Shown here one piece after another: positions 6,268-64,000 of a stretch of DNA of 64,000 nt. Positions within the stretch are counted from its first letter, which is position 1. Each line of letters opens with the position of its first letter. Position numbers and translations under genes: made by a program. Below the pieces are notes generated by a model, which worked only from the letters and a program-made list of their open reading frames with translations, was not told the origin of the DNA and searched no databases. The stretch comes from Deltaproteobacteria bacterium (GTDB lineage: Bacteria > Desulfobacterota > Binatia > HRBIN30). Where the stretch lies: positions 3,939-67,938 of the forward strand of contig JACQEN010000195.1 of the NCBI GenBank assembly GCA_016200585.1. The letters run 5' to 3'.

Positions 6268-6353
6268 TAGTCTCGCTGGGTCGGGAAAGTCAACAAAAAA
6301 TCCTCATCCAGAATGCTAGTCACCGGGCAGGTTTCACATACATACTGCCGCTC

Positions 6354-7367: not shown

Positions 7368-7500
7368 CGCGCCTGCCAATTTGACATTGGTCGAGAGTCG
7401 ACAGTTCCAGGCCTGGCGCAAACTGTCGACGGTAGACTGTAGTGAACCATCGACCTGAAGCGCGGCTTCGCAGTATGATTTGTCATCGGAAGGATCGTTC

Positions 7501-9009: not shown

Positions 9010-9154
9010 GTGCCACTGTCCTACGGCGATTCGCAGGAAAGGTACGGTGGGGATTTGCCAGTCATGAGAAACCCGGGCCCGGCAGGGCCCATTCTCTGCG
9101 GATCGAACGGCGTGGCGGCACTGTTGCTGGCCAGGTGAAGGCGCGGAGGGAAGC

Positions 9155-18436: not shown

Positions 18437-18440
18437 GCCG

Positions 18441-18446
18441 AGGAGG
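18441..18446 (+). promoter_or_regulatory. Shine-Dalgarno (aggagg) for the molybdoenzyme alpha subunit
   Basis: Lies 7 nt upstream of ATG 18454 and just after the beta-subunit stop at 18436. Confidence 0.7.
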
Positions 18447-18453
18447 AATCGCC

Positions 18454-23284: not shown

Positions 23285-24265
23285 TCAACACGTCGCCCCC
23301 GACCATTGCGCTTGCGGAACGAGCTCGACCGCGACGCGCCATAGCGCTTCCATGTCACCGCGAGTGAGCAGCGCCGCGTCCTCGAGGGCGTAGGGCCGAT
23401 CGAGACGATGATACTTGGGGCGCCCGAGGTTGGTGTAGGCCAGCAGATCCCAGCGTTGTACGCTCGGCAAACAATTGCGGATGAAGTCGGCGATGGCGCG
23501 GATGTTGTCTGCATTGGCCGTGTAGCCGGGGACGAGCGGCGTACGAATCCACAGCGGCGTACCGTGCTCGGCCAGCAAACGAGCATTGTCGAGGATCAAT
23601 TCGTTGGACACGCCGGTGGCGGCTTTGCTTGCGGCTGCGTCCATGACCTTGAGGTCGTAGAGCACCAGGTCGATCCACGGCAGCACGCGACGCAAACGGT
23701 CGCTGGCGACGGCGCCGCAGGTGTCGAGGGCCACCTGCAGACCGGCGGCTTTGCACAGCGGCAGGACCTCACTCAGAAAGTCGATTTGCGTGAGAGGTTC
23801 GCCGCCGCTGAAGGTGACGCCCCCTCCCGAGGTTTCGTAGAACACTTGATCCTTGAGCAACTCGTCGAGCAGCTCTTCGGCTGTCCACTGCTTGCCGATG
23901 AGCTCGAACGCTGCCGAGGGGCAAGCACGAACGCATTTGCCGCACAGGGTGCAGCGAGCGCGGTCGATCTGCATGCCGCTCTGCGACAACGCCAGCGCCT
24001 GTTCCGGGCAGATGGAGAGACACTCGCGGGCCGCAATACAGCGCACGTCGTACCACATCAGATCGGGGGCAACGCGCATGCCCTCGGGATTGTGACACCA
24101 GGCGCAGCGCAACGGACAGCCTTTGAGGAATACCGTGGTCCGAATGCCCGGGCCGTCTTCGGTGCTGAACTGTTGGATATTGAAAGTGGTGCCGGTGACG
24201 CTGAGGTTGCGGAGCAGCGGCGCGCTTGCAGCCGCGGTTGCTGCGGCGGTTGAACTAGAGTCCAT
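23285..24265 (-). CDS. Glycyl-radical enzyme activating enzyme (radical SAM, with a ferredoxin-like two-cluster insert)
   Basis: The radical-SAM motif is GCPLRCAWCHNPEG, preceded by FSTEDGPGIRTTVFLKG. Extra clusters are CIAARECLSICP and CTLCGKCVRACP. The start MDSSST is at 24265 and overlaps the GRE stop by 11 nt; the longer ORF-track start is an extension into the GRE. Confidence 0.9.
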   Translation of the reverse strand: MDSSSTAAATAAASAPLLRNLSVTGTTFNIQQFSTEDGPGIRTTVFLKGCPLRCAWCHNPEGMRVAPDLMWYDVRCIAARECLSICPEQALALSQSGMQIDRARCTLCGKCVRACPSAAFELIGKQWTAEELLDELLKDQVFYETSGGGVTFSGGEPLTQIDFLSEVLPLCKAAGLQVALDTCGAVASDRLRRVLPWIDLVLYDLKVMDAAASKAATGVSNELILDNARLLAEHGTPLWIRTPLVPGYTANADNIRAIADFIRNCLPSVQRWDLLAYTNLGRPKYHRLDRPYALEDAALLTRGDMEALWRVAVELVPQAQWSGATC

Positions 24266-26693: not shown

Positions 26694-26987
26694 CGATTTA
26701 ACCCAGGTGCAAATTGAGAGCCGTCGCCGCGGTTCAAAGAGTCTGAGAAACTTCTTGAAGGAATTTCCGGATCGTGGGAGAGGCGGAAGCTTGCGAAACA
26801 TGAGTCTGTTCGCGCACTCTGGGATTCGTAGATTGGGTCGACAGCAAATTTCTCCAACTTCTCCGATGGTCAGAGTTGTTAGTTTCGTGTTCAGGCGAGT
26901 CCGTAGCGAGCAGCGCCGGTCGATTCACCAATATCCATTTGCGACCTGGCGTCGTGACGTGAAATAGTTTTGCTCGAGGACGAATCG

Positions 26988-34041: not shown

Positions 34042-36072
<2,031 letters not shown>

Positions 36073-36255
36073 TTATACAGCCCATGGCGGCTTCGGCAAT
36101 TGGCGCAAGGGCCTTGCGGCGGTTTCTTGTGGGTGGGGGGCGAGAGGCTCACGAGCTCAGGGCTCGGCAAAATGGAAATTGACATTCGCGCGGTTGTCAC
36201 GGAAGCTACCGCTCCACCGCTGGTGAACGGAACACGATACGTGCTGAGTCGGTTG

Positions 36256-39092: not shown

Positions 39093-42000
39093 GTGGTGCG
39101 GTCGTCGACAAATTCACAATTTCCGAAGCTGAGAGCCCTGCGATGGCAGACAGCTTCTGTGGTGGTTTCAATTGTGGGTTTGCTAAGCGGCTGTGGTGGG
39201 GGTGGGAGCGGCAGCACAACGAATGCTCCGGGCGGCTTGGCGCTTAGGGCTCTTTGGGAGCGATCTTCCACGGCGCATTCGTTGTTTCGGCCGAAAGCCT
39301 TCCAGGGCGGCTCGGAGCTTCCAGCCAGTGTATCGACGATCGTTGTGCGAGTCGGAGCTACGCAACGCGTCGTCGATCCGCATTGCGAAGCCGTGAACGG
39401 CGACTTCCCGTGTCGGCACGTCGAGATCGACGGATTGCAGCCAGGGCCGACGACCGTCCAGGTTGTCGGCTACGACGTGCCATTCGCAGCGGCAAGCACC
39501 ATCGATCAATTTGATCTTGCGCCTTCGTTCCGCAGCGATCGGCTCGATGTGATGATCCATGCCGGACAGGTGGCGGATGTGGAAGTTGATGTATTGGCTC
39601 AGCCGTTTGTTGCCTCGATCGACCCGTCTCCAGGCGCTACCGGGGTCTTCCGATCGACCCCGTTGAGCTTCCTTGTCGTCACCGCCGCCAACAGCATCAA
39701 CCTCAGTTCGATTCAAGTCGATGTCAATGGTTCTCGGGTCGTCGACGCCGGCGACCCGACGGATGGGGCACTGCTTGCCGATTGCAACGACTTGGATCCA
39801 GAAGCCCAACCGTGTACGCCCGGCGGCGCAAAGGGTGTGAGCGGCTTCTTGATCACCTACCAGCCGCTGGATGCATTTCCATCGACGACCCCGGTGACGG
39901 TTCGAGTGCAAGCGAGCGATTTGAACAGTCCGGCCCGCTCTGTCGACTTCTCGTATGCCTTTACGACCGGCACGCTTGCCGCAAGTCCGACACCGACGTG
40001 GACGCCGAGCTTGACTGCGACCCCGACCGCGACGCCGACGCGAACGGAAACGCCAACGCAGACACCGACGCCGACGGTTACGCCATCGAATACGCCGACC
40101 CCTTCCTTTACGGCGACGAGCACGGCTACAGAAGTACCGTCGGCGACGCCAACCAGCACGTCGACATTCACGCCGACGCAAACGGCTAGCCCGTCGGTGA
40201 CGCAAACGCCGACGGACACGCCCACCGACACACCGACCGAAACGCCGACGTTGACTCAGACGGCGACGGCGACGCCGACGGATACGCCGACCGCGACATC
40301 GACGGAGACGCCGACGTCTACAGCGACGAGCACGCCGACGGCGACCGCGACGTTGACCGAGACACCGGTCGCTTCGTTCACGCCGTCATCGACCGCGACG
40401 GAGACTGCGACGGCGACGGTGACCGATACCGCGACTGAAACCGCCACGCCGACGCCTTCGCAAACGCCGTCGTCGACGCCGACCAGCAGCGACACGCCGA
40501 CCGACACGCCGACGCCGACCAACACGGAAACACCGACGGAGACGCCGACCGTCACCGATACGCCGACCTTGACGGCGACCGAGACTCCGACGGAAACCCC
40601 GACGCAAACCGCGACGCCGACGGATACACCGACACCCACCGAAACATCGACGGCGACGGTGACGGCGACGCCAACCGAGACGCCAACGCCGACCGAAACC
40701 GCGACCGAAACGGCTACGCCGACTCAGACCGCGACCCCCAGCGACACACCGACGGTTACCGAAACACCCACGGAAACGGCGACGCCGACGGTGACCGACA
40801 CGCCGACCGAGACGCCCACCCCAAGTGAGACGCCGACGGCAACCGATACTGAGACAGTCACCGAAACACCGACCGAAACGGCAACACCGACACAGACGCC
40901 GACGGCAAGCGATACGCCTACGGCGACTCAGACATCCACCGATAGTCCCACGCCATCGGTGACGGCGACGGCGACGGAAACACCGACGGAGACGGCTACA
41001 GCGAGCGCCTCCGAAAGTCCGACCGCTACGCCAACCGAGACAGCGACGGAAACGCCGACCGACACCGCGACGGAGACGCCGACCGAGACCGTTACCGAGA
41101 CGCCGACAGAAACCGCTACGGAAACTGCGACGCCTACGGAAACGCCGACGGTCACGGCTACCGCAACGGCCACCGAAACCGCCACGGAGACGCCCACACC
41201 GACGATCACGGATACGCCCACCGAGACAGCGACCCCGAGCGTAACGGCAACGCCGACGGAGACGGCCACGCCGTCAGCGACGTCGACCGCAACGTCTACG
41301 GCCACGCCGACGGTGATCCCGCGCGCCTATGTAAGTAACGCCGGCAGCAACAGCGTGTCGGTAATCGATACGACCTCGAACACGGTGGTCAGCACCATTC
41401 CGGTTGGTACGAGCCCGTTCGGCGTTGCCGTAAGCGGTCAGGGGACGCGTGTCTATGTGACCAATCAATCCAGCAACAGTATGTCGATCATCGATGCCGG
41501 GGTGAACGCCGTCATCAATACGGTTGGCGTCGGACGCGGTCCAGTCGGATTGGCGGTGATGGCCACGGGAGACAAGGTGTACGTTGTGAACAAGATCGAC
41601 GCCAACGTGTCGGTTTACGACGTCAACAACGGGATCCTCGGCAATATCGCGGTCGGTAACTCGCCCGTCGGCATTGCGGTGAACCCAATTCAGGCAAGGG
41701 CCTATGTCGCCAACCAATTGAGTAACTCGATTTCGGTCATCGATACCAACTTCGATGTTGTCGTCGATACCTTGTCGATTGCCAGCCAGCCCTTCGGCAT
41801 CGCTGTCAGTCGCGACGGCGGTCGCTTCTACTTTACCAACCTCGGTAACAACAGCGTTGTCGAAGTGGAAACGACGACCAATACGGTTGTTCGCACCTAT
41901 CTGCTCGGCAACAACACGCGACCGTTTGGTGTTACGGTAAGCCCGGATGGAACACATGTGTACGCTGCTAATGTCCAGGGTAACTCGGTATCGGTTATCA

Positions 42001-42251
42001 ACACGGTGACGCACGCGCTGACCACGGTATCCCTCGGCACCGGTAGTGCTCCGTTCGGCGTTTCGGTGAATCCGGAAGGCACCTTGCTCTACGTTGCCAA
42101 CTCGAATCGAGGGAACGTGTCGGTGATCGACGCTTTGACGAACGCAGTCGTGCGCACGATTGCGGTTCAGTCGATGCCGACTGCGTTTGGCCAGTTCATT
42201 GAACCCGCAGCGGCCCAGTCGGGCGGTACGGGTTCGCTCATTGTGCCGTAA
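39093..42251 (+). CDS. Giant lipoprotein: lipobox, Ig-like region, about 440-aa acidic Thr/Pro stalk, C-terminal YVTN-type beta-propeller
   Basis: The signal and lipobox are [23 protein letters not shown] starts at 39093/39096 follow aggagg. Propeller repeats are [71 protein letters not shown] and [17 protein letters not shown]. The C-terminal end is MPTAFGQFI. Confidence 0.8.
39984..41313 (+). repeat. About 443-aa acidic Thr/Pro/Glu/Asp low-complexity stalk (degenerate [ED]TPT / TATPT units)
   Basis: e.g. [54 protein letters not shown]...[52 protein letters not shown]. The DNA is dominated by acg/acc-ccg-acN-gaN codon strings. Confidence 0.9.
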
Positions 42252-52543: not shown

Positions 52544-53002
52544 ATGAAGCGACGAAATCTCATTGAAATGACCGAAGACGAACGCCGCGTGTTTCTGGCG
52601 GACGCCCGTACCATTACTTTGTCGACCATCGATCCGCGTGGCTACCCGCACTCGGTCGCTATGTGGTACGTGATGGACGGCGATTGTACGCTGATGACGA
52701 CCTACGCAAAGTCGCAGAAGACGAGAAACATCGAGCGCAATTCAAAGGTAGGGTTGATGGCCGAAACCGGGACGACCTACGATACGTTGAAGGGGGTGTT
52801 GATTCGAGGTCGCGCCGAGCTGATCCGCGAAGAAGAGAAATGCCTGGAAGTCCTCAAACGAGTACATGCAAAGATGCTGGGCTCGTTTCCCGAAGGGATC
52901 GATGAGGCGCTCCGAGCCCAGGCCCGCAAACGGGTTGTCGTCCGCGTGGTACCCGAACGCATCAGCAGCTGGGACCATTCAAAGCTAGGCGGAGTCTACT
53001 GA
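52544..53002 (+). CDS. Pyridoxamine 5'-phosphate oxidase-family (PPOX class, possibly F420/FMN-dependent) protein
   Basis: 152 aa. LADARTITLSTIDPRGYPHSVAMWY..KTRNIERNSKVGLM..VLIRGRAELI. Confidence 0.75.
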   Translation: MKRRNLIEMTEDERRVFLADARTITLSTIDPRGYPHSVAMWYVMDGDCTLMTTYAKSQKTRNIERNSKVGLMAETGTTYDTLKGVLIRGRAELIREEEKCLEVLKRVHAKMLGSFPEGIDEALRAQARKRVVVRVVPERISSWDHSKLGGVY

Positions 53003-53084
53003 GGAAGGTTCCGGCTGGCGGCGAAAACTTGCGTCGGTAATTTTCTGCGGTTTTTCCGGTCGGGAATTGAGCGAGGAACCTGGA

Positions 53085-53113
53085 TTGCAATTGCGCACCT
53101 GCCGGCGCATACA
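53085..53113 (+). promoter_or_regulatory. Candidate sigma70-type promoter, TTGCAA-N17-CATACA (weak -10)
   Basis: Read directly, about 50 nt upstream of the first stalk gene. The -10 matches only 3 of 6 positions, so confidence is low. Confidence 0.2.
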
Positions 53114-53162
53114 CGGTCGCGCGGTGTGTCGAGAAGGCGCAACGCACGGAGCCGTGGGCGTT

Positions 53163-55451
53163 GTGACAGCGAAAAGAGTAGGAATGGTACTCAGCATTGC
53201 GCTCGGCGCGGTGCTCACTCTGACCGGGGCAGGGTTGGCGTTGCAAGGCGATGCCGACTGCAACGGCACGGTCGATAGCAGCGATATCGCGGCCACGGTT
53301 GTGGCAATCTTCGAGGGATCGAGTTGTGCCGGTGGCGATGCCAACCTCGATGGTGCGCTGACGGCTGCCGATGTGAGCGCTGCGATTCGGATGGTCGGTT
53401 CGTCGCGGGCCACTGCTACGCCGACCGAGACGCCAACAGACACTCCACGCACCGAAGAGTCGCCAAGTCCGAGTGTCTCAGAAACTCCAGGTCCGTCGAC
53501 GACCGCCTCGGCGACTCCGAGCAGCAGCGCCACTGGCACCAAGGATTCAACCCAAACGCTGACCGCCACTGCGTCGCGTACGCCGACGATCGTTCCGACG
53601 ATCACTGCAACCGCTTCGAGCTCGGCCACGGCAAGTTCGACGCCCACCCTGGTGTCGTCCGCGACGCCGACGCAGTCGCCAAGTCCTTCTCCAACCGAGA
53701 GTCCGACGGATACCCCTAGTGCAACGGAATCGATACCGCCATCTGCTTCGCCAACCACTACCGCCACAGTGCCACCGACACAGAGTTCGACGGCAACTGT
53801 TTCGCCGAGTTTCACGCCGACCATTACCGTTACGTTTACGGCGAGCCGGACCGCGACGGTCACGAGAACCCTGACTTCGTCGCTGACCCCCACCGTTACC
53901 GGAACGCCTTCGTATACGATACCGCCGACGCGTACTCGCACGGAGACGCCGACGAAATCACCGACGCGTACGTGGAGCGCGACAACCACGGCGACAGGCA
54001 CGGCCACGCAGAGCCCGACCGAAACGGGGACTGCGACACGAACCGGAACGGCGACTCAAACACCGACGCGGACCGGCACTCCGACCAAAACGGCGACCCC
54101 GACGATGACGGTGACGCGCACGGCGACAGGCTCGCCAACGGAGACGGCAACCAGCACCCAGACGTCAACGCGCACGCCAACGGCAACCGAGACACCGTCA
54201 AGCACGCCGACCGTGACGACAACACCCAGTCCGACGCGGACGGTGACGGCGAGTCGGACGCCAACGTCGACTGCGACGTCGCCCGGATCTCCCACGGCGA
54301 CCGGTACACGTACGCCTACTTCGACTGGGACAGCAAGTGCCTCCCCGACGGCATCCTCAACCGCCACCCGTTCGTATACTCCGTCGCCGACTTTCACCGG
54401 CACGGCGACGGTTCCGGCGACGCGCACCGCCACCTTGACACGGTCGCCAACGCTGACTGGGACGCCGACGCGCACGGCAACGGCAAGCTCGACGCTGCAG
54501 CCGACGCTGACCGCGACGGTGACGCAAACCCCGACCGGAAGCCGCACTCCAACGGGTACTCAGACCGCCACGCCGTCACGGACAGCGACGCGCACGCCGA
54601 CGTCATCGCCCACGCTCAGCGCGACGCCAAGCTTTACGGGAACAGGAACCCGCACCCCGACGCGGACGGCGACCTTGACGGCGACCGCAACGGCAACGTT
54701 CACAACAACGCCGAGTGCTACGCTGACGCGAACCCCGACGCCGACGCCGACGCCGACACCCTCGCCGACGAAGACCGCCACACGTACCGCGACCGCTACG
54801 GCAACGGCGACGCAACCGGCGATTGGGCCGCACGTGCTGACGCTAGCGGTTGTCACCAGTTTCGATGGCTGCGTGTTCTGTTGTGAACAGAGTTGCGCGC
54901 GTACTCCTACACCAACTCCGGCCTTCGACGGACTGGGGCGGCGAATTTTCACGACGGCGAGCGGGCAGTTCGTACTCGTCGTTGAAGGTGTGGCGGGGGC
55001 TAGCGCGCGGGCGCCCGGGACGTCGCTGCAGCCGTCCTCATCCGACAACCGCCCCGATCTGTGGATCGAGAGTACCAGACCGTTGGGAAATGGCAGCACG
55101 CAAGTTTGCGATACGGGGCCGCCCTCTGCCGGTGGTGGCGGAGTTCCCGCCGTCAGCCCGCCGAGCTTTTCGTCGGGCATCCAGAGCGTTACCGACGCGC
55201 TCAACGATTTTGCCTGCCGCTTCGACCCGTCGGTCGGCGCGGCTGCTCCGTGTACGGTTTTGGATTCCACACGCGAGCCGCGGTTGATCAACTCGTCTGC
55301 TAGCGTGCAATTCTGTGACTTCGTGGCAACCACGGCGACGTTCCCGCTGGGTGACAGTGTGGTCTCGGTGGCGCTGAGAGACGTTGCCGGCAATATCGGT
55401 CCGACAGCGCAGGTGGTGGTGCACGTTGTGACGCCGACGCCCAAGCCGTGA
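53163..55451 (+). CDS. Secreted 'dockerin-like anchor / about 470-aa Thr-Pro stalk / Cys-rich head' protein, paralog A
   Basis: ORF track 53067..55451. The likely start is GTG 53163 (MTAKRVGMVLSIALGAVLTLTGAGLALQ) or ATG 53184. See the module, stalk and head sub-features. Confidence 0.8.
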   Translation: MTAKRVGMVLSIALGAVLTLTGAGLALQGDADCNGTVDSSDIAATVVAIFEGSSCAGGDANLDGALTAADVSAAIRMVGSSRATATPTETPTDTPRTEESPSPSVSETPGPSTTASATPSSSATGTKDSTQTLTATASRTPTIVPTITATASSSATASSTPTLVSSATPTQSPSPSPTESPTDTPSATESIPPSASPTTTATVPPTQSSTATVSPSFTPTITVTFTASRTATVTRTLTSSLTPTVTGTPSYTIPPTRTRTETPTKSPTRTWSATTTATGTATQSPTETGTATRTGTATQTPTRTGTPTKTATPTMTVTRTATGSPTETATSTQTSTRTPTATETPSSTPTVTTTPSPTRTVTASRTPTSTATSPGSPTATGTRTPTSTGTASASPTASSTATRSYTPSPTFTGTATVPATRTATLTRSPTLTGTPTRTATASSTLQPTLTATVTQTPTGSRTPTGTQTATPSRTATRTPTSSPTLSATPSFTGTGTRTPTRTATLTATATATFTTTPSATLTRTPTPTPTPTPSPTKTATRTATATATATQPAIGPHVLTLAVVTSFDGCVFCCEQSCARTPTPTPAFDGLGRRIFTTASGQFVLVVEGVAGASARAPGTSLQPSSSDNRPDLWIESTRPLGNGSTQVCDTGPPSAGGGGVPAVSPPSFSSGIQSVTDALNDFACRFDPSVGAAAPCTVLDSTREPRLINSSASVQFCDFVATTATFPLGDSVVSVALRDVAGNIGPTAQVVVHVVTPTPKP
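53247..53396 (+). other. Dockerin-like module (paralog A)
   Basis: GDADCNGTVDSSDIAATVVAIFEGSSCAGGDANLDGALTAADVSAAIRMV. Confidence 0.55.
53409..54817 (+). repeat. About 470-aa Thr/Pro/Ser/Ala/Arg low-complexity stalk (paralog A)
   Basis: e.g. [84 protein letters not shown]. Confidence 0.9.
54818..55448 (+). other. Conserved Cys-rich C-terminal head domain (paralog A), unrecognised family
   Basis: AIGPHVLTLAVVTSFDGCVFCCEQSC..GRRIFTTASGQFVLVVEG..RPDLWIESTRPLGNGSTQVCDTGPPSAGGGGVPAVSPPSFS..TDALNDFACRFDP..PCTVLDSTREPRL..QFCDF..FPLGDSVVSVALRDVAGNIGPTAQVVVHV. Confidence 0.7.
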
Positions 55452-58054
55452 ATCGCTCGCCTTTCAGACTCCTGACGGTCGGGATCGCACTGACGGCATT
55501 GCTGGCATCGGCTTGTCGCGCTCAGGCGGCGATTTCCGCGGATCTCAACTGCGATGGTGTAGTGGACAGCGCCGACCTAGCTGTTGCGGTTGCTGCGCTA
55601 TTTGAACCCACGGTAGGCGGTTGTGTCTCCACCGACGTCAACCTTGATGAGCGCCTCAGTGCGGCCGACGTGATATCGTTGATCCGTTCCGCATCTTTTC
55701 TTGCGCCAACTGCGACCGCCACGGATCTACCGTCGCCGACGTTGAGCCTGACTCCATCCCCCGAGGCGACTCGTACATCCGAGCCCACCGATAGCCCGAC
55801 GCCGAGTGTCACGATCTCCCCGACACCCTCGCCACTGCCGAGCTTGTCCCCGTCGGCCACCGTGACCTTCACGGCATCGTTGACCAAGCCGGCGACTCGT
55901 TCACCCACCTCAACGAGAACCTCGGCCGAGGTCCTCGCCAGTCCAACATTCACCGCCGAAGAGATCCCGTCCTCACCTTCGGTGACGCCGTCGGAGGTCG
56001 GCGGCACGGCTACTCCGTCGACCGAGCCCAGTGCCGAAACCACGTCGACCCCTTCGCCGACGGGTACGGAGTCGCCGAGTGCGACCGCCGTGGAAACGGA
56101 AACCGCGACGGCGACACCTTCCCTTTCGCCGCCCCCGACTGCAACCGCAACGGTGACCTCGAGCTGGTCGGCGACCCCGGCGCCAACCGATACGGCTACG
56201 CCGACGCCGTCCATGACCCTGAGCCCGACAATGAGCCCGACAATGAGTCCGACTGCGTCGACCTCCGCGACGCCTTCCCCGATTTTGTCTCCGACACCGT
56301 CGGGCACACCTTCGCGCACGCCATCCAAAACCAGGTCAATGACTCCTACGTCGAGTTTCACGCACACGCCGTCTGCGACGCCGACAACGTCCGCGACTCG
56401 GACATCGACGGCGACCAGCAGTCCGACGGTGACACGAACCCCGACCGAGACCCCGACGTCTACGCTCACGGCGACGCCGACAAGCACGGAAACGCCGTCG
56501 CCAACGTACAGTCCGACACGCACGGCCTCTCCCTCGCGCACACCGACTTCGAGTGCTTCGCCGAGCCACACCCCACTGCCGACGATGACTCCGACCCCGA
56601 GCTCGACCGAAACCGGCACTCGAACCGCGACGCGGACGCCAACCGCGAGCCTGACGCCGACGAGCACGATCACTCGCACCCCGACGCGCACGCCGCTGCC
56701 GAGCTTCACGCCGACGCCGACGGCCACACCGACATGGAGCCCCAGTCCGACCGTTACACCTACAGGGACGCGGTTGCCAAGTCGAACCCCGAGCCCGAGC
56801 CCGACGGGAACCGCGAGCGTCACTCCCACGGCGACGGTGACGGCTACTTCGACGCCGACTCCCTCCGCTACTTCCACACCCACGGTGTCGCCGACTCCAA
56901 CAAACACGCCAACGTTCACGGCCACGCCGACAATCACGGCGACGGCCACGCTGACTGCGACGCCGACCGTAACCCCGACGATTACGATTACGCCAACGGC
57001 GACTCCAACATCGACGGTGACCGCTACGGATTCGCCGACGGCGACCGCGACGGAAACTCCAACGCTGACTCCGTCGCCGACGGAAACCGCTACAGCGACG
57101 CAGACCCCCTCGAGAACAGGTACGTCAACCGCAACGGGATCGCCGACAAGAACGCCGACGCGAACGGCGACGGCCACCTTCACGCCGACGCTGACGCCAA
57201 CGAACACCGCCTCGTTTACCCCTACGGCTACTCGGACGCCGACTCGAACTGGCACGCCGACTCCGACCGGGACGTCCACACCCACGGCGACGACGACATT
57301 CACCCCGACCATCACGCCCACTCCGACCGGTACCCGGAGCGCCACCCCGACTCCTAGTGTGACGCCCAGCGCAACAGCGTCGTCGACGCCGACCGCCTCG
57401 GCGACGACGACGCCAACCGGACAGGGACCGCAAGTTACGTTCTTGGGCGTGCTGACTCGTTTCGACGGATGCGCGTTTTGTTGCGAGGCGAGTTGTGTCA
57501 ACGCGCCAACGCCGATCCCGGAATACGATGCTGAAGGTAGGCGCGTTTACTACGCGTTGTCGGGGCAATTCGTGGTCGTGGTGGAAGCGCGCCCAGGCCT
57601 CAGCGGTGCGGCGGTGGCGACATCACTGCAAGCGGTCCCGCCGGACTACCGACCGGACATTTGGATCGAGAGCTCGCGCGATCTGGGCAACGGCAGTGCG
57701 AAGGTTTGTGATACCGGACCGGCGAATTCGGGCGGTGGCGGCGTGCCCGGAGTCGATCCACCGAATTTCTCCCTCGACCTGCCCGCCGTGACGAATGCCT
57801 TGGTTGATTTCGGCTGCCGCTTCAATCCAGGTATCAGCGCCGCCAGTCCCTGCACCATCGTTGACGCCACCCGTGAGCCGCGGCTGCTTACGGCCGCGAC
57901 GGCTCAATTCTGTGACTTCGTTTCCAGCACGAGCACCTTCCCAAGCGGAGAATCCGTTCTGACGGTCGCCTTGCGCGATACGGTGGGAAATATCGGACCC
58001 ACGGCGCAGATCGTTGTGCGCGTCGCCACACCGACAGCCACACCGACACCCTGA
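55448..58054 (+). CDS. Secreted 'dockerin-like anchor / about 570-aa Thr-Pro stalk / Cys-rich head' protein, paralog B
   Basis: The GTG start overlaps the paralog A stop (GTGA, 55448..55451). The signal is MNRSPFRLLTVGIALTALLASACRAQA. Whether it is cut by SPase I or is a non-canonical lipobox is unclear. Confidence 0.8.
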   Translation: MNRSPFRLLTVGIALTALLASACRAQAAISADLNCDGVVDSADLAVAVAALFEPTVGGCVSTDVNLDERLSAADVISLIRSASFLAPTATATDLPSPTLSLTPSPEATRTSEPTDSPTPSVTISPTPSPLPSLSPSATVTFTASLTKPATRSPTSTRTSAEVLASPTFTAEEIPSSPSVTPSEVGGTATPSTEPSAETTSTPSPTGTESPSATAVETETATATPSLSPPPTATATVTSSWSATPAPTDTATPTPSMTLSPTMSPTMSPTASTSATPSPILSPTPSGTPSRTPSKTRSMTPTSSFTHTPSATPTTSATRTSTATSSPTVTRTPTETPTSTLTATPTSTETPSPTYSPTRTASPSRTPTSSASPSHTPLPTMTPTPSSTETGTRTATRTPTASLTPTSTITRTPTRTPLPSFTPTPTATPTWSPSPTVTPTGTRLPSRTPSPSPTGTASVTPTATVTATSTPTPSATSTPTVSPTPTNTPTFTATPTITATATLTATPTVTPTITITPTATPTSTVTATDSPTATATETPTLTPSPTETATATQTPSRTGTSTATGSPTRTPTRTATATFTPTLTPTNTASFTPTATRTPTRTGTPTPTGTSTPTATTTFTPTITPTPTGTRSATPTPSVTPSATASSTPTASATTTPTGQGPQVTFLGVLTRFDGCAFCCEASCVNAPTPIPEYDAEGRRVYYALSGQFVVVVEARPGLSGAAVATSLQAVPPDYRPDIWIESSRDLGNGSAKVCDTGPANSGGGGVPGVDPPNFSLDLPAVTNALVDFGCRFNPGISAASPCTIVDATREPRLLTAATAQFCDFVSSTSTFPSGESVLTVALRDTVGNIGPTAQIVVRVATPTATPTP
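55538..55690 (+). other. Dockerin-like module (paralog B)
   Basis: ADLNCDGVVDSADLAVAVAALFEPTVGGCVSTDVNLDERLSAADVISLIRS. Confidence 0.55.
55705..57417 (+). repeat. About 570-aa Thr/Pro/Ser low-complexity stalk (paralog B)
   Basis: e.g. TPSATPTTSATRTSTATSSPTVTRTPTETPTSTLTATPTSTETPSPTYSPTRTASPSRTPTSSASPSHTPLPTMTPTPSSTETGTRTATRTPTASLTPTSTITRTPTRTP. Confidence 0.9.
57418..58051 (+). other. Conserved Cys-rich C-terminal head domain (paralog B)
   Basis: GQGPQVTFLGVLTRFDGCAFCCEASC..GRRVYYALSGQFVVVVEA..RPDIWIESSRDLGNGSAKVCDTGPANSGGGGVPGVDPPNFS..TNALVDFGCRFNP..PCTIVDATREPRL..QFCDF..FPSGESVLTVALRDTVGNIGPTAQIVVRV. Confidence 0.7.
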
Positions 58055-58185
58055 ACCTTCCATCAACGATTGCGAAAATCGCGGCTAAAATTGCAAATTC
58101 TGGTTGTTGCAAACAGAAGAACCGGCAGGCATTGAAGGACGCGATCTCAACGCACCACAATCGCAGTCAGGTCCAAACCTATCGC

Positions 58186-61113
58186 ATGAGCTGCCGCCTA
58201 CGATCGCTGAGGATGCTCTATCTCTCGTTCGCCGTATTGGTGGTGTGCGCACTAGCGCGAGGCGGCTTCGCGCAACCGCTTCCCGGCGATGCCAACTGCG
58301 ATGGCTCGATCGATGTGGCGGACGCTGAAGCGGCGGCTCTGGCGATCTTTGAAGGATCAAACTGTGGGGCAAGCGACGCCAACGCAGATGGGAGTGCGAG
58401 TGCCGCGGATGTCGTTGCCGTGTTGCGATTGTTCGTATCGGCGCCAACTCCTACATCGACACTCGCGCTGCCGACGGCATCGGAAAGTCCAATTTCGAGC
58501 TCGACGCCGACGCTCCCGCCACCGTCACCCACGGCGACCCTACAGATTGATCCAATCGAATCGCCGTCAAGCACCATGACGCCAACGATCGTCCCCTCGG
58601 ACACGCCCACGGCGACTCCCGTGGTCACAACCGTGGTACCGAGAACCAGCACGCCGTCCTCAAGCCCGGGGTTGACCGAGACGAAGCCGCCAACTGCTTT
58701 GCCGTCTGCGACCACGACCGCGACAGCCGATTCGACCCCAATCTCGACGCCGGAAACAACCGCGAGCGCAACATCGACGGTGCCAATTCCGACAGCAACT
58801 GCAGACGAGACTCCGACGACCGAGGGGTCGGCAACCAGCACGCCGACGGTCGCGTCGCCGTCGGCAACCGAAACGCCGTTCCCCTCGCCAACACTAGCCG
58901 AATCGGCGTCGCCTTCGGTAACGTCCAGTGAGACCTCGACGCCGACGGGCACCGAGAGTCAGCGCCCGACCGCGACAAGCTCTCCGACAGCGAGCGCGCC
59001 AACCCGAACGACATCGGTTACGCGGGCGGCAACGCTGACCGCTACGGCGACGGTGACGCCATCCGAGAGTGCCAGTCCGACGCTGAGCCGCACCTCGACG
59101 AACACCGCTACTCCGACTCGATCACCCTCACCGAGCTTCACCCTGCCGCCACCGCGAACGATGACGCCGACGCGTTCTCCCAGTGCGACTGCCACCGAGA
59201 GCCCATCGCCGACTGAGTCGCCATCGGCAACAGAAACATCGACGGGGACGCCGACTCCCTCGCCGACACCGAGCCGCTCGCCGACTCATACGACAACGGA
59301 ATCCCCCACGGCGACGGAGACCACGACGGGGACGCCGACACTGACTTGGACGATTCTTCCAAGTGTGTCGCCCACGAGAACCCTGACGGCGACGCAATCT
59401 TCGACTCCTGCGCCGTCGGGAACGTCCACGCCTTCGTCTACCGCGACGACGAGCAGCACCCGAACTGCCAGTGCCACGCGCACGGGGACCTTGCCACCGA
59501 GCGCGACGCCGACCAGAACTTCGACGAACACGTCGACGAGCACGCCGACCTCGACGTCAACGCGGACGATACCCCCGACACGCAGCGCCACTCCCAGCCG
59601 CACGCCAACGGAAACCGCCACTGCGAGCGCGACACGGACGCAGTCCTCGACGCCCACGCAGACCGCCTTAGCGACGGATACGGCAAGTGCGACGCCGACA
59701 CGCACGCCAACCGGCACGCCTACCGATAGGCCGAGTGCGACGTGGACGCCGACCAGCTCTGCGACTCGTACGCCGACTGATTCACCCAGCTCTACACCGT
59801 CTCGGAGCCCGACGATCTCGCCGACCGCGTCGCCTACGTTGCAACCGTCCTCGACGACAACATCCAGCCTTACGCCAACCGACACGGCGACGGAAACCCC
59901 TTCACGCAGTCCGTCTGCGACGGCGACGGCGACTTCCTCGCCGTCGCAAACGAGCACCCAAACGCCGAAGCCGACGGCGACACCTTCGAGATCACCCACG
60001 GTGACACCAACCGAGACGTGGACCCGAACTCCCTCGGTTACTCCCAGTGAGACGCCCACGGGCACCAGTACCGCGACGCAGACAGCGACGCGAACGCCGA
60101 CAGCAAGCTCCTCGCAAACTTCAACGAGGACAGCGACGCTGACGCCGACGGAGACGGCGACGCCAACCGATACGCCGACTTGGACTCCTACTCGCACGCC
60201 GACGGCGACGCCGACCTATACTTCGACGCGAACAGCGACACTGACGCCGTCGCCGTCGGCGACGCCTACGGATGTCCCGACGCAGACGCCGACGCGTACA
60301 CCTACGTCGACGCCCACCGAAACTCCGACGCGTACCGCGGCGGCGACAGGGACGCCGACGCGGACACCCACGGAAACGCCGTCACCGACTTCGACGGCAA
60401 GTCCAACGCTGTCGCGGACGGCGACGTTTACGCCGAATGCGACGCCGACCCGTACACCCACCTCTTCGGCGATTGGTCCTCAGGTCGCCTTCTTTGGCAT
60501 CGTTCCCGCGGATGGATGTTATGCATGCAACGATCCCGGTTGCTTGTGCGGAACAACGCCGACTCCGACGCCGATGCTCGATGGCAATGGGAGGCCGGTG
60601 TTCCTCACCGCCAATGCCGGCGGTTTTTTGCTCGTGCTCGAGGCACGACCGGGTACGAATGGCGCTTCGGTGGGCACATCGGTTCCGCCACCAACACCAG
60701 GGCAAGGTGTGCGTCCAGATCTGCAGATCCAAGCATCGAGCGCCCTGGGAAACGGAAGCGCTACGATTTGTGACACGCAGCGCATCGTCGATGGCGGTGG
60801 CGGCGTTCCTGGGTTCGATCCACCGGATTTCAGTTCGTTGTCTTCGATTACCGATGCGTTGATCGATTTCGCATGCCGTTTTGATCCGCACTCGCCGTCG
60901 GTGCCGTGTACTCTCTCTGGTGATGGCAATGACGGTACAATTACAGCGAATCTTCCGATTGGTTCCGAACAGTTTTGCTACCGCACAGAGATCAACACGG
61001 CCTTCCCGTACGGCGACACTGTCTTGACGGCGCAGGTGCGTGATTCGAGTGCGGCGCACAACATCGGACCCACTGCGCAGATCGTTATCCGTCGTGTAAC
61101 GCCGCATCCATAG
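58186..61113 (+). CDS. Secreted 'dockerin-like anchor / about 675-aa Thr-Pro-Ser stalk / Cys-rich head' protein, paralog C
   Basis: ORF track 58132..61113. ATG 58186 gives MSCRLRSLRMLYLSFAVLVVCALARGGFAQP. Confidence 0.8.
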   Translation: MSCRLRSLRMLYLSFAVLVVCALARGGFAQPLPGDANCDGSIDVADAEAAALAIFEGSNCGASDANADGSASAADVVAVLRLFVSAPTPTSTLALPTASESPISSSTPTLPPPSPTATLQIDPIESPSSTMTPTIVPSDTPTATPVVTTVVPRTSTPSSSPGLTETKPPTALPSATTTATADSTPISTPETTASATSTVPIPTATADETPTTEGSATSTPTVASPSATETPFPSPTLAESASPSVTSSETSTPTGTESQRPTATSSPTASAPTRTTSVTRAATLTATATVTPSESASPTLSRTSTNTATPTRSPSPSFTLPPPRTMTPTRSPSATATESPSPTESPSATETSTGTPTPSPTPSRSPTHTTTESPTATETTTGTPTLTWTILPSVSPTRTLTATQSSTPAPSGTSTPSSTATTSSTRTASATRTGTLPPSATPTRTSTNTSTSTPTSTSTRTIPPTRSATPSRTPTETATASATRTQSSTPTQTALATDTASATPTRTPTGTPTDRPSATWTPTSSATRTPTDSPSSTPSRSPTISPTASPTLQPSSTTTSSLTPTDTATETPSRSPSATATATSSPSQTSTQTPKPTATPSRSPTVTPTETWTRTPSVTPSETPTGTSTATQTATRTPTASSSQTSTRTATLTPTETATPTDTPTWTPTRTPTATPTYTSTRTATLTPSPSATPTDVPTQTPTRTPTSTPTETPTRTAAATGTPTRTPTETPSPTSTASPTLSRTATFTPNATPTRTPTSSAIGPQVAFFGIVPADGCYACNDPGCLCGTTPTPTPMLDGNGRPVFLTANAGGFLLVLEARPGTNGASVGTSVPPPTPGQGVRPDLQIQASSALGNGSATICDTQRIVDGGGGVPGFDPPDFSSLSSITDALIDFACRFDPHSPSVPCTLSGDGNDGTITANLPIGSEQFCYRTEINTAFPYGDTVLTAQVRDSSAAHNIGPTAQIVIRRVTPHP
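58286..58434 (+). other. Dockerin-like module (paralog C)
   Basis: GDANCDGSIDVADAEAAALAIFEGSNCGASDANADGSASAADVVAVLRLF. Confidence 0.55.
58438..60462 (+). repeat. About 675-aa Thr/Pro/Ser low-complexity stalk (paralog C)
   Basis: e.g. SPSPTESPSATETSTGTPTPSPTPSRSPTHTTTESPTATETTTGTPTLTW...TRTPTATPTYTSTRTATLTPSPSATPTDVPTQTPTRTPTSTPTETPTRTAAATGTPTRTPTETPSPTSTASPT. Confidence 0.9.
60463..61110 (+). other. Conserved Cys-rich C-terminal head domain (paralog C, most divergent)
   Basis: AIGPQVAFFGIVPADGCYACNDPGCLC..GRPVFLTANAGGFLLVLEA..RPDLQIQASSALGNGSATICDT..DGGGGVPGFDPPDFS..TDALIDFACRFDP..PCTLSGDG..EQFCYR..FPYGDTVLTAQVRDSSAAHNIGPTAQIVIRRV. Confidence 0.7.
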
Positions 61114-61244: not shown

Positions 61245-61251
61245 AAGGAGG
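61245..61251 (+). promoter_or_regulatory. Shine-Dalgarno (aaggagg)
   Basis: Lies 6 nt upstream of ATG 61258. Confidence 0.7.
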
Positions 61252-61257
61252 CGTGCG

Positions 61258-62547
61258 ATGCGAGAGTTGATGCGGAGTCCTTGGCTGCCCGTGCTGGGGG
61301 TGCTGCTGGCAGCGACCGGGATCGTTGGGGTCGCGGGGCAGGCTAGGGCCGATGTGACGACGGACGACGCCGGGTCGATTGTAATCTACCCGAAGGTGGT
61401 GTCGGATGGCACGCGGGACACGTTGATTCAACTGAGCAACCGTTCGAACATGCCGGTGTTTGTGCACTGCTTCTACGTGAACACGGCCGGTCGATGCAGT
61501 GCGACGACGGAGCAACGATGCCGACTCGATGGCGACTGTCCCTCGGGTGAATCCTGCGCGCGCACCTGTGACGCAAACGACTTTGATGTCCTTCTGACTG
61601 CGCAGCAGCCAACCATGTGGCGTGCATCCACTGGTCGCTTGGCGTCATTGACGCCGGGGCCCTGCCGAATCGGGCAAACTTGTGGTTGCTCCATCGACGT
61701 GGCAAGTGGCCAGCAAATTTGCCCGGGGCTTGAAGCCGCACCAAGCAACTCACCGTACACGCCTGCGGTTGGCGGCGAATTCGAGGGCGAACTGAAATGC
61801 TACCAGACCGATGTCAACGGTTTTCCGATTCCCGGCAACGCAATAAAGGGCACGGCGATTCTTGAGAACGTTTCGAATGGTCAGATCAGCGAATACAACG
61901 CTCTGACCGTTTCGGCGAACGCCGATCCAGTTGTTGGCGTCAACCAGGGGCAAGATCTGCAGCTCAACTATTCTGGGGGCGGAGCGGGCGAATACAACTA
62001 TTGTCCGTCGAACCTGGTGTTCACACACTATGGCGACCAGGCGGTCGATGCATTTACGAACGCGACGGTTAGCACAGAGATCACACTGGTCCCGTGTACG
62101 GAGTTGATCGAAGAACGCGCCCCGACGCCGGTGACAGTGAGTTTTCTGGGCTTCAATGAATTCGAACAGCGCTTCAGCGCCGATGCGATCTCCTTCGATT
62201 GTTACTTCAGCCGCAGTTTGGCGGATATCCCGAGTGAGGGGCAGCCGTTGTTCGTCGCTGGTGCTGGACAATGGTGGAAAACGCGAATTACGCCGTCGGC
62301 TTCGAACATTTGTTTGACGGGAAGCAGTCGCGGTCTAACATGTGCGTCCGACGCGGATTGTCCAGGGTTCTTGACTAGTCCCGAAAACAACAGTCTGGGA
62401 TGCCGGCCTGCACCGGGAGTGCTCGGGGTTGTGGAGGAGTTCCACGCAATCGGCGGGCTCGCGGTTGGCACGGCAGCGAACAACATGCACGTCGAAGGTC
62501 AGCGGAGCGGATTCGGGGACGTCATTGTGGTGCCGTCGCTCCAATAG
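61258..62547 (+). CDS. Secreted Cys-rich protein, unrecognised family ('PKV / HCFY / FNEFEQRFS' family), paralog 1
   Basis: The signal is LPVLGVLLAATGIVGVAGQARA. Then come GSIVIYPKVVSDGTRDTLIQLSNRSNMPVFVHCFYVN and the Cys-rich inserts CSATTEQRCRLDGDCPSGESCARTC and CLTGSSRGLTCASDADCPG. Other conserved segments are ITLVPC and FLGFNEFEQRFS. Length is 429 aa. Confidence 0.75.
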   Translation: MRELMRSPWLPVLGVLLAATGIVGVAGQARADVTTDDAGSIVIYPKVVSDGTRDTLIQLSNRSNMPVFVHCFYVNTAGRCSATTEQRCRLDGDCPSGESCARTCDANDFDVLLTAQQPTMWRASTGRLASLTPGPCRIGQTCGCSIDVASGQQICPGLEAAPSNSPYTPAVGGEFEGELKCYQTDVNGFPIPGNAIKGTAILENVSNGQISEYNALTVSANADPVVGVNQGQDLQLNYSGGGAGEYNYCPSNLVFTHYGDQAVDAFTNATVSTEITLVPCTELIEERAPTPVTVSFLGFNEFEQRFSADAISFDCYFSRSLADIPSEGQPLFVAGAGQWWKTRITPSASNICLTGSSRGLTCASDADCPGFLTSPENNSLGCRPAPGVLGVVEEFHAIGGLAVGTAANNMHVEGQRSGFGDVIVVPSLQ

Positions 62548-62564
62548 TCGAGGGGACGGGAGTC

Positions 62565-63812
62565 ATGGCGACAATGAAGAGTAGGGAAAGGAGTCGGACC
62601 ATGGTGCAGACGAGACGAGTTGCCGCAGCGGTTGTGGCAGCAGTGGCAATGGCGTCGAGTGCCCAGGCGATCAGCACGAGTGACAGGCCAGCGGCAATTC
62701 AGGTTTGGCCAAAGGTCGTGGTGGATTCCGCGGGTCGATTTACGCAGGGGGTGCCCGTCAACACGCTCATCACGCTCAGTAACACGGATCATCGTGGCGA
62801 GAAGCGGGCCCATTGCTTTTACACCAACGCGAATGGGCACTGCGCCAACAACTCTGCTCAGGTCTGTCGTAGCGCAACTGACTGCACGGCCTCGGAATGT
62901 ACTCCGGGCTGGGCCGAGATGGATTTTGACGTCTATCTAACACTTGAGCAACCGCTTGGTTGGTACGCCAGTGATGGCCTCTCGCGTGGCGCGTTTCCAA
63001 AGGAAGGTCCATTCTTCTGCAACGCGCCGCTCACCCAGGTTCCGTGTACGACCGACGCGGTCTGCGGCGGCCTCGGGTGCAATGTTGGACAGAGCAATCT
63101 TGGGAGCGGTATTCCTCCGGTTCCTGAGGACCCATTTATTGGGACCCTGACTTGTATTCAGTTCACGATTGGGAGCCAGTCGAGTCCGGACCAGACGGTT
63201 GACCGCAATCGCCTCTACGGAGAGGCGACGATTCTCCAAGGGGGGCCGGTAATCGGCGCCGCCCCATTGCCTGTTGACGTAGCGAAATACAATGCCGTTG
63301 GTTTCAGGGGCCAGGGTGTAAATTTTGATCCGACAAATACCTTCCAGCTCGGCGGCGCCGGTGCTGAATACGACGGTTGTGCCTCGACCCTGATTCTCAG
63401 TCATCTGTTCGACGGTGCCATTGATCCAATATCGAACACCCGCCCGGCTTCGACAGATCTAACGCTTGTTCCGTGTGGCAACAATTTCTCGAGCCAGATC
63501 CCAGGTCGAACGACAGCCCAATTTCTGGTGTTCAATGAGTTCGAGCAAAGGTTTTCGACGAGCCGCTCCATTGATTGCCTGTTTGATGGTGCAATTTCGA
63601 CAATCGATACGCGCAACACGGCACGATCGATCTTCAGCGCTGGCGTTGCAGGTACGATTTCTGGTCAAACTCGGATTCGTGGCGTTGGTGGAAACGCAAC
63701 GGGTTATGGTTTGATCGGTACCGCGCAACTTTCCCTTGGATCGGGTTCGAGCGCCGCCTACAATCTGCACCAGCAAGGGGTTGGCGGCACGGACTTCATC
63801 ATCATTCCCTGA
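62565..63812 (+). CDS. Secreted Cys-rich protein, same unrecognised family, paralog 2
   Basis: ORF track 62400..63812. ATG 62565 after gaggggacgggag gives MATMKSRERSRTMVQTRRVAAAVVAAVAMASSAQA. Then come AAIQVWPKVVVDS..NTLITLSNTDHRGEKRAHCFYTN, HCANNSAQVCRSATDCTASEC, LTLVPC and FLVFNEFEQRFS. Confidence 0.75.
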   Translation: MATMKSRERSRTMVQTRRVAAAVVAAVAMASSAQAISTSDRPAAIQVWPKVVVDSAGRFTQGVPVNTLITLSNTDHRGEKRAHCFYTNANGHCANNSAQVCRSATDCTASECTPGWAEMDFDVYLTLEQPLGWYASDGLSRGAFPKEGPFFCNAPLTQVPCTTDAVCGGLGCNVGQSNLGSGIPPVPEDPFIGTLTCIQFTIGSQSSPDQTVDRNRLYGEATILQGGPVIGAAPLPVDVAKYNAVGFRGQGVNFDPTNTFQLGGAGAEYDGCASTLILSHLFDGAIDPISNTRPASTDLTLVPCGNNFSSQIPGRTTAQFLVFNEFEQRFSTSRSIDCLFDGAISTIDTRNTARSIFSAGVAGTISGQTRIRGVGGNATGYGLIGTAQLSLGSGSSAAYNLHQQGVGGTDFIIIP

Positions 63813-63861
63813 CGTAGCAAGCAGGATCGAATCACAAGGTTTTCTTCGAACCTGCGTAACC

Positions 63862-63869
63862 GAAGGAGG
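63862..63869 (+). promoter_or_regulatory. Shine-Dalgarno (gaaggagg)
   Basis: Lies 5 nt upstream of ATG 63875. Confidence 0.7.
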
Positions 63870-63874
63870 CAGAC

Positions 63875-64000
63875 ATGAGGGCGAGACAGGGCGGCTGGCT
63901 CTTAGCGGTCGGAATAGGAAGTTTGCTGCTGAGTGCTGTAACGGCACGAGCAGACGTAGGTGGGGACCGGCCGGGGTCGATCCTGATCTTTCCGAAGGTT
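63875..64000 (+). CDS. Secreted protein, third paralog of the 'PKV' family; partial, continues beyond the window
   Basis: My own translation gives MRARQGGWLLAVGIGSLLLSAVTARADVGGDRPGSILIFPKV. This has the same signal + GSI[VL]I[YF]PKV opening as paralog 1. Confidence 0.6.
   Translation, partial: MRARQGGWLLAVGIGSLLLSAVTARADVGGDRPGSILIFPKV

Follow-up and report, generated by a model that had tools for sequence, protein, structure and literature searches.

Alternating alpha and beta genes of an exported cysteine-rich protein family form conserved arrays in Binatia

We analysed a 64,000-nt stretch of contig JACQEN010000195.1 from a Deltaproteobacteria bacterium assembly placed in Binatia (hereafter the window, to which all positions refer). 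Its last 2.7 kb are filled by three genes, all on the same strand, of an exported cysteine-rich protein family that, as judged from homology searches, is confined to the uncultured class Binatia and is categorically new, both as a protein family and in its gene architecture. The genes of this family occur in arrays of the form (alpha-beta)n with n = 1–3, in which two subfamilies always alternate. The array in the window is predicted to be the start of a conserved cassette, alpha1-beta1-alpha2-beta2, whose copy number is taken from orthologous loci.

The alpha1 gene (61258..62547, + strand) encodes 429 aa according to its open reading frame (ORF) and translation, and its product is 100% identical to NCBI HY270_14800, encoded on a 67,939-nt contig of a metagenome-assembled genome (MAG) labelled 'Deltaproteobacteria bacterium'. 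A Shine-Dalgarno sequence read from the DNA (AAGGAGG, 61245..61251, +) lies 6 nt ahead of its ATG. Residues 1–31 form a signal peptide cleaved between …QARA and DVTTD, and the all-beta mature chain contains 18 Cys, one of which is the C104 cap described below. The beta1 gene (62601..63812, +; 403 aa, 13 Cys) is identical to NCBI HY270_14805 (P0260, 403 aa). The original prediction, made from the nucleotide sequence and its translations, gave the same end and placed the start at an in-frame alternative ATG at 62565, corresponding to 415 aa. We consider that start less likely than ATG 62601, because the latter has AAGGAG 7 nt upstream (62588–62593), a canonical signal peptide (MVQTRRVAAAVVAAVAMASSAQA, cleaved before IS) and the same start in NCBI. 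The alpha2 gene (63875..>64000, +) is interrupted by the window edge after its first 42 codons, which encode MRARQGGWLLAVGIGSLLLSAVTARA before and DVGGDRPGSILIFPKV after the cleavage site; its Shine-Dalgarno sequence, GAAGGAGG, can be read at 63862–63869 (+).

Each of the three genes carries a Sec-type signal peptide, as had been predicted, and the structure models of alpha1 and beta1 contain low-confidence N-terminal stretches (a helix in the alpha1 model). The signal peptides of alpha1 and beta1 have no Cys. In alignment A2, the alpha1 signal peptide (61258–61350; Mr.lKR.PWL.gLGvlLA....) is better conserved than the mature part, with 35% vs 18% of columns at least 90% conserved, which is not the usual pattern for a Sec signal; in beta1 the relation is reversed, the mature part being the better conserved.

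The proposal that positions 61258–64000 hold tandem paralogs is borne out by BLASTP, which aligns alpha1 with beta1 at 30% identity over 341 columns (E 3e-33), and by BLAST matches of the 42-aa alpha2 fragment to family members with E down to 1e-11. All of the shared motif blocks named in the original prediction were located by regular expression in alpha1 and beta1, respectively: TLIQLSN and TLITLSN, HCFYVN and HCFYTN, ITLVPC and LTLVPC, and an EY..C block that reads AEYDGC in beta1 and GEYNYC, instead of the announced AEY, in alpha1. The Cys insert, searched for in the same way, is present in both proteins (CSATTEQRCRLDGDCPSGESC in alpha1, CANNSAQVCRSATDCTASEC in beta1), except that its last spacing in beta1 is Cx4C, not Cx5C. 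Two further observations were correct as made: the 9-mer FNEFEQRFS is identical in alpha1 and beta1, and a strand [IV]x[IV][YWF]PKV after an AxA cleavage site opens the mature chain of all three genes (IVIYPKV, IQVWPKV and ILIFPKV in genes 1, 2 and 3). The estimate of at least 14 Cys in each disulfide-rich protein holds for alpha1 and fails for beta1. The C-termini read ...GDVIVVPSLQ in alpha1 and ...TDFIIIP in beta1.

To define the organization of these genes, a family hidden Markov model (HMM) was searched against all ORFs of 80 related loci, using stop-to-stop ORFs and HMMs. Gene calling based on GC content at third codon positions (GC3) was dropped, as it chose reverse-strand artefacts at genes with Thr/Pro/Ser repeats; gene callers likewise mis-call Thr/Pro/Ser-rich stretches, for example in locus L081 at 7204–9850. 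In all 80 loci the family genes form same-strand tandem arrays of 2, 3, 4 or 6. Best matches between loci are position-specific, that is, first genes of four-gene arrays match first genes, second genes match second genes, and so on. Within loci, mean bit scores are 188 for positions 1 and 3 and 198 for positions 2 and 4, vs 133 for positions 1 and 2 and 103 for positions 3 and 4, and the members of two-gene arrays map onto the odd and even classes. Position-specific matching together with this odd/even likeness therefore defines two subfamilies, alpha (odd) and beta (even). Estimated intergenic gaps have medians of 52 nt from alpha to beta and 70 nt from beta to alpha.

The window genes fit this scheme: gene 1 best matches position-1 genes and gene 2 position-2 genes of four-gene arrays, and the alpha2 fragment best matches a position-3 gene of an orthologous array (L001_3of4; 62% identity, E 1e-11). 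Where orthologous loci are complete downstream, they carry exactly four genes (27 loci), as in the annotated example L081 with genes of 424, 427, 344 and 422 aa. The exceptions are L035, in which the third of four genes is broken by frameshifts, and L013 and L015, which are ended by the contig end. Because the complete orthologous loci have exactly four genes, one further gene, beta2, is predicted after alpha2, in line with the earlier expectation that more copies may follow beyond the window. A search with the 42-aa alpha2 fragment brought up no candidate for a continuation of the contig, which may therefore stop at the window edge. After the four-gene cassette, same-strand genes encode a stand-alone response-regulator receiver (28 loci) and a DUF1232 protein (21 loci); these genes, exemplified by L001:5312-5701 and equivalents (L081:15085-16225), could be regulatory partners or merely syntenic.

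Clustered at 50% identity, the family comprises 1775 clusters with E ≤ 1e-3 in an exhaustive profile search, of which 549 reach E ≤ 1e-30. Named sources are all Candidatus Binatia or MAGs with loose or older labels ('Deltaproteobacteria', HR30, 'Myxococcales', 'Margulisiibacteriota'), and these loosely labelled MAGs show the same multi-array pattern as Binatia. Relatives in species-representative genomes reach at most 59% identity. Single MAGs, as seen in loci fetched from those genomes, hold 2–4 arrays and up to 13 full-length family genes. No viral relatives were found in 2.9 million IMG/VR contigs.

The family had not been recognised in the original reading of the window, and searches of curated resources agree with this. 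At E ≤ 1, NCBIfam r20 and PADLOC 2.0 returned nothing, the best PHROGs v4 match had E 0.34, and Pfam-A 2025 returned nothing for beta1 and nothing above threshold for alpha1, whose matches to Nodulin_late, defensin-like and WAP models at the 4-Cys insert (14–15 bits) are noise. PDB sequences searched with a 113-sequence family profile gave a best E of 1.3; this resemblance, between alpha1 239–283 ('T.(E/D)LTLVPC') and picornavirus-type VP1 ('DSEITLVPC'; 8ay4/8ay5), was judged to be due to chance. Database annotation of family sequences is 'hypothetical protein' only. Our literature search found no paper joining Binatia and dockerin, nor any on Binatia surface structures. Taken together, no curated family, solved structure or paper was found that covers the family.

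Structure models point in the same direction. AlphaFold2 models of alpha1 (113-sequence alignment) and beta1 (117-sequence alignment) both have a predicted local distance difference test (pLDDT) score of 91, with predicted template modelling (pTM) scores of 0.87 and 0.88, and both are all-beta and two-lobed with about 25 strands. Foldseek searches of PDB and BFVD with both models gave no convincing whole-chain relative, the best match having E 1.8e-4 at a template modelling (TM) score of 0.08–0.2. The whole-chain matches are generic tandem-sandwich proteins (arrestins, transglutaminase barrels, norovirus VP1) with a root-mean-square deviation (rmsd) above 19 Å. One lobe of beta1 matches Thermotoga TM1070 (1NC7) with a probability of 1.0 and a TM score of 0.66–0.69 (117-residue target) over about 144 columns, at rmsd 3.7–5.1 Å, 4–6% identity and E 8e-3. 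We read this match as a probable fold-class resemblance of the model and not as family membership. Mean-field direct coupling analysis (DCA) of 575 sequences (effective number, Meff, 328) yielded sensible strand ladders and placed the N-terminal strand 41–49 in contact with 216–218, 274–278, 389 and 423. Because this strand sits among strands of the C-terminal lobe, the two lobes appear to be intertwined.

Conservation was assessed over 264 array members, in alpha1 numbering throughout. Invariant positions in the N-terminal part are P45-K46, D54-T55, N61, C71, Y73, D108-F109, L113-T114, Q117-P118, W121 and G126; in the middle, FxGxLxC (175–181), N194, G198, Y213-N214-A215, Y246, C249-P250 and P279-C280; and in the C-terminal part, E301-F302-E303, S307, C315 and D421. 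The invariant residues are Cys, Gly, Pro, aromatics and Asn/Asp/Glu/Gln in type, with no conserved His. Members contain 9–25 Cys per exported chain of about 400 aa, and five Cys are invariant. Two core disulfides, C71–C181 and C249–C280 (the latter pair covarying in DCA), are kept in each member, and C315, conserved in 98% of members, is a further invariant Cys. The remaining Cys lie in 4-Cys loop inserts that are gained or lost together (r 0.87–0.98).

Cysteine parity distinguishes two states of C315. In 66 complete arrays, the Cys count is even in every member that carries C104 and odd in every member that does not, with no exceptions; because of this parity, C315 should be unpaired unless C104 is present. 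In DCA, C104 is coupled to P289, D314 and Y316. By this measure C315 is unpaired in most members, including nearly all beta subunits, and is capped by C104 in roughly half the alpha subunits from arrays linked to the stalk genes described below (16/28 alpha1, 15/28 alpha2) and in a few others. Among the window genes, alpha1 (18 Cys) encodes a capped subunit and beta1 (13 Cys) one with an unpaired Cys; C326 is the C315 equivalent of beta1.

Directly upstream of the window array lie three genes for putative stalk proteins, each comprising a signal peptide, a dockerin-like N-terminal module with a Ca-loop pair, a linker of 500–700 aa that is 66–70% Thr/Ser/Pro (TSP), and a C-terminal head of about 230 aa. 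Stalk gene 1 (53067..55451, +; start codon uncertain) encodes a signal peptide, a dockerin-like Ca-loop pair, a linker of about 500 aa (66% Thr/Ser/Pro) and a Cys-containing head of about 230 aa. Stalk gene 2 (55448..58054, +) has a weak Dockerin_1 match (E 0.0017, residues 31–80), a TSP linker and a head, and stalk gene 3 (58132..61113, +) a dockerin-like N-terminus (Dockerin_1 E 0.0068), a TSP linker and a head. From the end of stalk gene 3 to alpha1 there are 144 nt with no terminator-like site between; a promoter and terminator scan was uninformative, with counts equal to the shuffled expectation. Stalk genes 1 and 2 share 4 nt (55448–55451), between the stop of the former and the start of the latter, which suggests translational coupling. 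The signal peptide of stalk 2 (...TALLASAC, then RAQ) fits the PROSITE lipobox, which is missing from stalks 1 and 3, so that stalk 2 may be lipid-anchored just ahead of its dockerin-like module. Minus-strand ORFs antisense to the linkers, such as 55522..57501 (659 aa) and 52985..54007 (340 aa), are composition artefacts.

The association between head domains and family genes, noted originally in this window, recurs well beyond it. A head-domain HMM places a same-strand ORF upstream of the array, at a distance of −100 to +380 nt, in the window and in 28 related loci. These 28 are every alpha1-type cassette with upstream sequence, and the co-occurrence is kept down to 33% identity. A second head-domain copy is often found about 0.4–1.4 kb downstream of the stalk-linked array. 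The same HMM finds a head-domain ORF in none of about 50 paralogous arrays. Heads contain 8 Cys in 30 of 50 cases, including all three window heads, with 2 more in the dockerin. Two relationships between the head and the family were considered and rejected: that the head is a diverged family member (hhalign probability 0.05), and that it is the disulfide partner of the free Cys, for which the even Cys count of most heads gives no support.

Two-gene arrays have other neighbours, following a PD40-DUF7107-dockerin protein, a true cohesin protein and UDP-glucose dehydrogenase. At locus L064, the ORF 3215-5878 encodes a PD40 beta-propeller, DUF7107 and a C-terminal Dockerin_1, and 5886-8120 encodes a Cohesin (PF00963, 53.7 bits) with Dickkopf-like Cys-rich modules; from these profile matches we take the pair to be a bona fide cohesin-dockerin pair in Binatia. 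Such PD40-dockerin/cohesin pairs, also present at L041 and L067, stand 1.5–3.8 kb upstream of two-gene arrays, with no obvious glycoside hydrolase.

Fusions were examined in about 650 family sequences. P0160, a called gene of 951 aa on a 7.7-kb NCBI contig, encodes in one chain a signal peptide, alpha, beta, a dockerin-like module, a short Pro/Thr (PT) linker and a head, with no internal signal peptides. Its head is recognized by the HMM at E 5e-52 and shares 32% identity with that of window stalk 2, and both C315 equivalents are absent from its covalently fused halves. Judged by its domain order, P0160 is a Rosetta-stone fusion of components that are encoded separately in the window. P0251, P0257 and P0197 have two family copies in one chain and are probably alpha-beta fusions without an internal signal peptide. 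In P0145 (864 aa), residues ~385–500 run from a family domain through a Thr/Pro/Ser linker to a tail (...GSSGCSAAPL..AATIGIAVALLWARRRRP) of the MYXO-CTERM-like type, with Gly-Cys, a hydrophobic stretch and RRRR; beyond the tail comes another family copy, which starts with a separate signal peptide, so this sequence probably represents two merged genes. P0225 (1443 aa) is a lipoprotein with three Vgb-lyase/NHL-like beta-propeller regions, PT linkers, and one partial and one full family copy at the C-terminus. Except for the internal tail of P0145, no C-terminal sorting tail (MYXO-CTERM, PEP-CTERM) ends a family ORF among 278 locus ORFs and 375 database proteins. The architectures of the P0160, P0145 and P0225 type suggest an extracytoplasmic, probably surface-associated and modular role.

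Elsewhere in the window, the other large genes encode, in order, an RHS-repeat/YD-shell protein with TIG and DUF6531 (1765 aa; 970–6267, −), a molybdopterin oxidoreductase (17818–21222, +), a glycyl-radical (PFL-like) enzyme (24255–26801, −), a PPC-domain protein (35905–38982, +) and a YNCE-like beta-propeller protein (39093–42251, +). Rfam identified no RNA family anywhere in the 64 kb.

The reading that we prefer, while giving it slightly less than even weight, is that the family forms a secreted alpha/beta hetero-oligomer with a structural or binding role in a surface apparatus of Binatia. The alternation of the genes and the single-chain fusions suggest that alpha and beta would assemble 1:1 outside the cytoplasm, and in many members C315 thiols may join the subunits. 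The complex would be a non-catalytic structural or binding module of the cell envelope or surface, as the conservation pattern, the lobe resembling carbohydrate-binding modules (CBM) and ASRT, and the copy number suggest. For the stalk-linked cassette, the operon-like arrangement and P0160, in which dockerin, linker and head are joined to the alpha-beta C-terminus, point to a complex that would work physically with the stalk proteins, maybe as a base or partner at the dockerin end.

Several observations weigh against this proposal. The Rosetta-stone fusion was seen once among the sequences examined, and the stalk link is limited to one of about four array types per genome. Other four-gene arrays are flanked by housekeeping genes (topA, aminotransferase IV and glnE upstream; gshB, rsmE-like, prmA and dnaG downstream), a setting that we read as synteny and not as function. 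Since alpha1 is capped and beta1 is free, a simple alpha1-beta1 disulfide is excluded in the window; the number of free-Cys subunits per array is moreover odd in 20 of 66 arrays, so any linkage through C315 does not follow a simple alpha-beta rule. It is equally conceivable that the conserved Cys, along with Glu, Lys and Gln residues, belongs to an active site. Finally, apart from the Sec signal peptide, no signal for secretion or anchoring was found in the window family proteins, which may be located in the periplasm or at the cell exterior. We regard as improbable a more specific version of the proposal, in which C315-cross-linked alpha/beta heterodimers would tile into a layer or socket array on the Binatia envelope where dockerin-tipped mucin-like stalks are planted; if true, such a tiled layer, made of proteins whose fold has no known relatives, would represent a bacterial surface architecture of a new kind.

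Among the alternatives, the one with the strongest claim, though clearly less probable than a stalk-associated hetero-oligomer, is that the proteins are soluble periplasmic or extracellular binders of lectin or CBM type which act independently of the stalks, adjacency being inherited synteny. The lobe resembling the TM1070/ASRT sandwich, itself related to CBM4-2, would suit such a role, as would the conserved aromatic and Asn/Asp/Glu/Gln residues, the UDP-glucose dehydrogenase gene adjoining two-gene arrays, and the fact that most arrays have no stalk neighbour. Inherited adjacency is however hard to reconcile with stalk genes that remain directly upstream on the same strand in 28 loci diverged to 33% identity, and with P0160, which links both parts covalently. 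Somewhat less likely still are secreted enzymes of a new class, with C315 as nucleophile or redox centre acting with K46, E274, E301, E303, S307 and Q117, and with alpha and beta as catalytic and regulatory subunits. The conservation of C315 and its unpaired state in most members would fit this, DCA brings K46, E274, S318 and the 313–318 turn close together with L113 near F313, and P0225 joins the family domain to Vgb-lyase-like beta-propellers. Yet a disulfide to C104 occupies the supposed nucleophile in about half of the stalk-linked alpha subunits and a few others, and both halves of P0160 lack it. There is no conserved His, no catalytic family was matched in Pfam, NCBIfam, PDB sequences or Foldseek, and an enzyme would not usually be expected in as many as 13 paralogs per genome, arranged in fixed pairs.

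Two further explanations seem very unlikely to us. Tandem two-component genes recall a binary toxin, pore-former or defence effector, an RHS-repeat toxin-like gene is present elsewhere in the window, and Foldseek lists very weak matches to iota-toxin Ib and CDTb (E 1.5e-3 to 4e-3, probability 0.06–0.08); these matches have TM scores of about 0.08, however, PADLOC found nothing, and the arrays are core and syntenic, some of them amid housekeeping genes, with no immunity-like small gene, mobile-element context or relatives on viral contigs. We give equally little credence to virus-derived jelly-roll capsid-like proteins building a shell or lattice. Here the Foldseek list for beta1 includes norovirus and plant-virus capsid proteins (best E 1.4e-3, probability 0.2), and the local 'SEITLVPC' resemblance to a picornavirus-type VP1 strand (E 1.3) points the same way, but the structural matches are insignificant (TM 0.13–0.15), the IMG/VR contigs contain no relatives, no PHROG matches, and Sec signal peptides with disulfides indicate an extracytoplasmic location.

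Members of the class Binatia (Binatota) occur worldwide in soil, sediment, sponges and hot springs; to our knowledge the class has no cultured representative, and we know of nothing reported on its cell surface. A family that is class-wide down to about 30% identity, exported and present in high copy, with a confidently modelled fold lacking a PDB relative, is better described as a lineage-defining extracytoplasmic component than as an accessory gene. It can also serve as a specific Binatia marker for metagenomes and metaproteomes.

Known systems resemble parts of this arrangement. TM1070 is an eight-stranded sandwich of the ASRT/ASRAH superfamily, whose predicted ligands are sugars or small molecules. 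This superfamily is linked to CBM4-2 by a circular permutation and has as hallmarks a Trp at the start of strand 1 and a His and a Cys in the ligand pocket (PMC2739507). The likeness to ASRT/ASRAH proteins (TM1070, 1NC7; Pfam DUF1362) consists in the superposition of one beta1 lobe on this sandwich, whereas there is no Pfam match at E ≤ 1 and the top 50 Foldseek matches of the alpha1 model do not include TM1070. ASRT proteins are, moreover, small and mostly cytoplasmic single domains, and the present family comprises exported, two-lobed chains of about 400 aa. Two-domain beta-sandwich proteins such as arrestins, transglutaminase C-terminal barrels and the Gram-positive pilins SpaD and AspA share tandem sandwich lobes and supply the top whole-chain Foldseek matches, but these have E ≥ 1e-4, probability ≤ 0.75, TM 0.08–0.16 and rmsd above 19 Å, and the lobes of the family are intertwined.

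The covalent cross-links of bacterial surface proteins were considered as well. Thioester domains (TED) are recognized by the motifs [YFL]C-psi-[DE] and TQxA-psi-W, while an isopeptide joins a first-strand Lys to a last-strand Asn or Asp with a catalytic Glu or Asp. A Cys-Gln thioester is not supported, as the family motifs FDC[YL]F and LTxxQPxxW differ from those of TED. A Lys46–Asp421 isopeptide of the CnaA/CnaB, SpyCatcher-like kind is likewise not supported, as the DCA register I41–I423 holds K46 away from D421. The chlamydial OmcA/OmcB and planctomycete YTV proteins, which are lineage-specific, exported, Cys-rich and tandem, are thought to stiffen the envelope by intermolecular disulfides, and offer an analogy for the unpaired C315. 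They show no sequence similarity to the family in the Pfam scan, which was empty, and neither the fold of the family nor its alpha/beta alternation is known to be described for them.

A further parallel is with cohesin-dockerin surface assemblies of the cellulosome type. Modular dockerin proteins with long Thr/Pro/Ser linkers adjoin the arrays, and in P0160 the alpha-beta pair precedes a dockerin-like module. The idea that the family itself is the missing cohesin was discarded, since PF00963 gave no match at E ≤ 1 and cohesins are absent from the Foldseek top 50, and the analogy is weakened because true cohesins exist in Binatia genomes (L064:5886-8120). Cellulosome-type systems also differ in their glycoside-hydrolase cargo, none of which is associated with the family arrays. 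P0160, as a natural single-chain fusion, indicates which partners belong together, and if the link to the stalks is physical, the family would define a new surface-display system.

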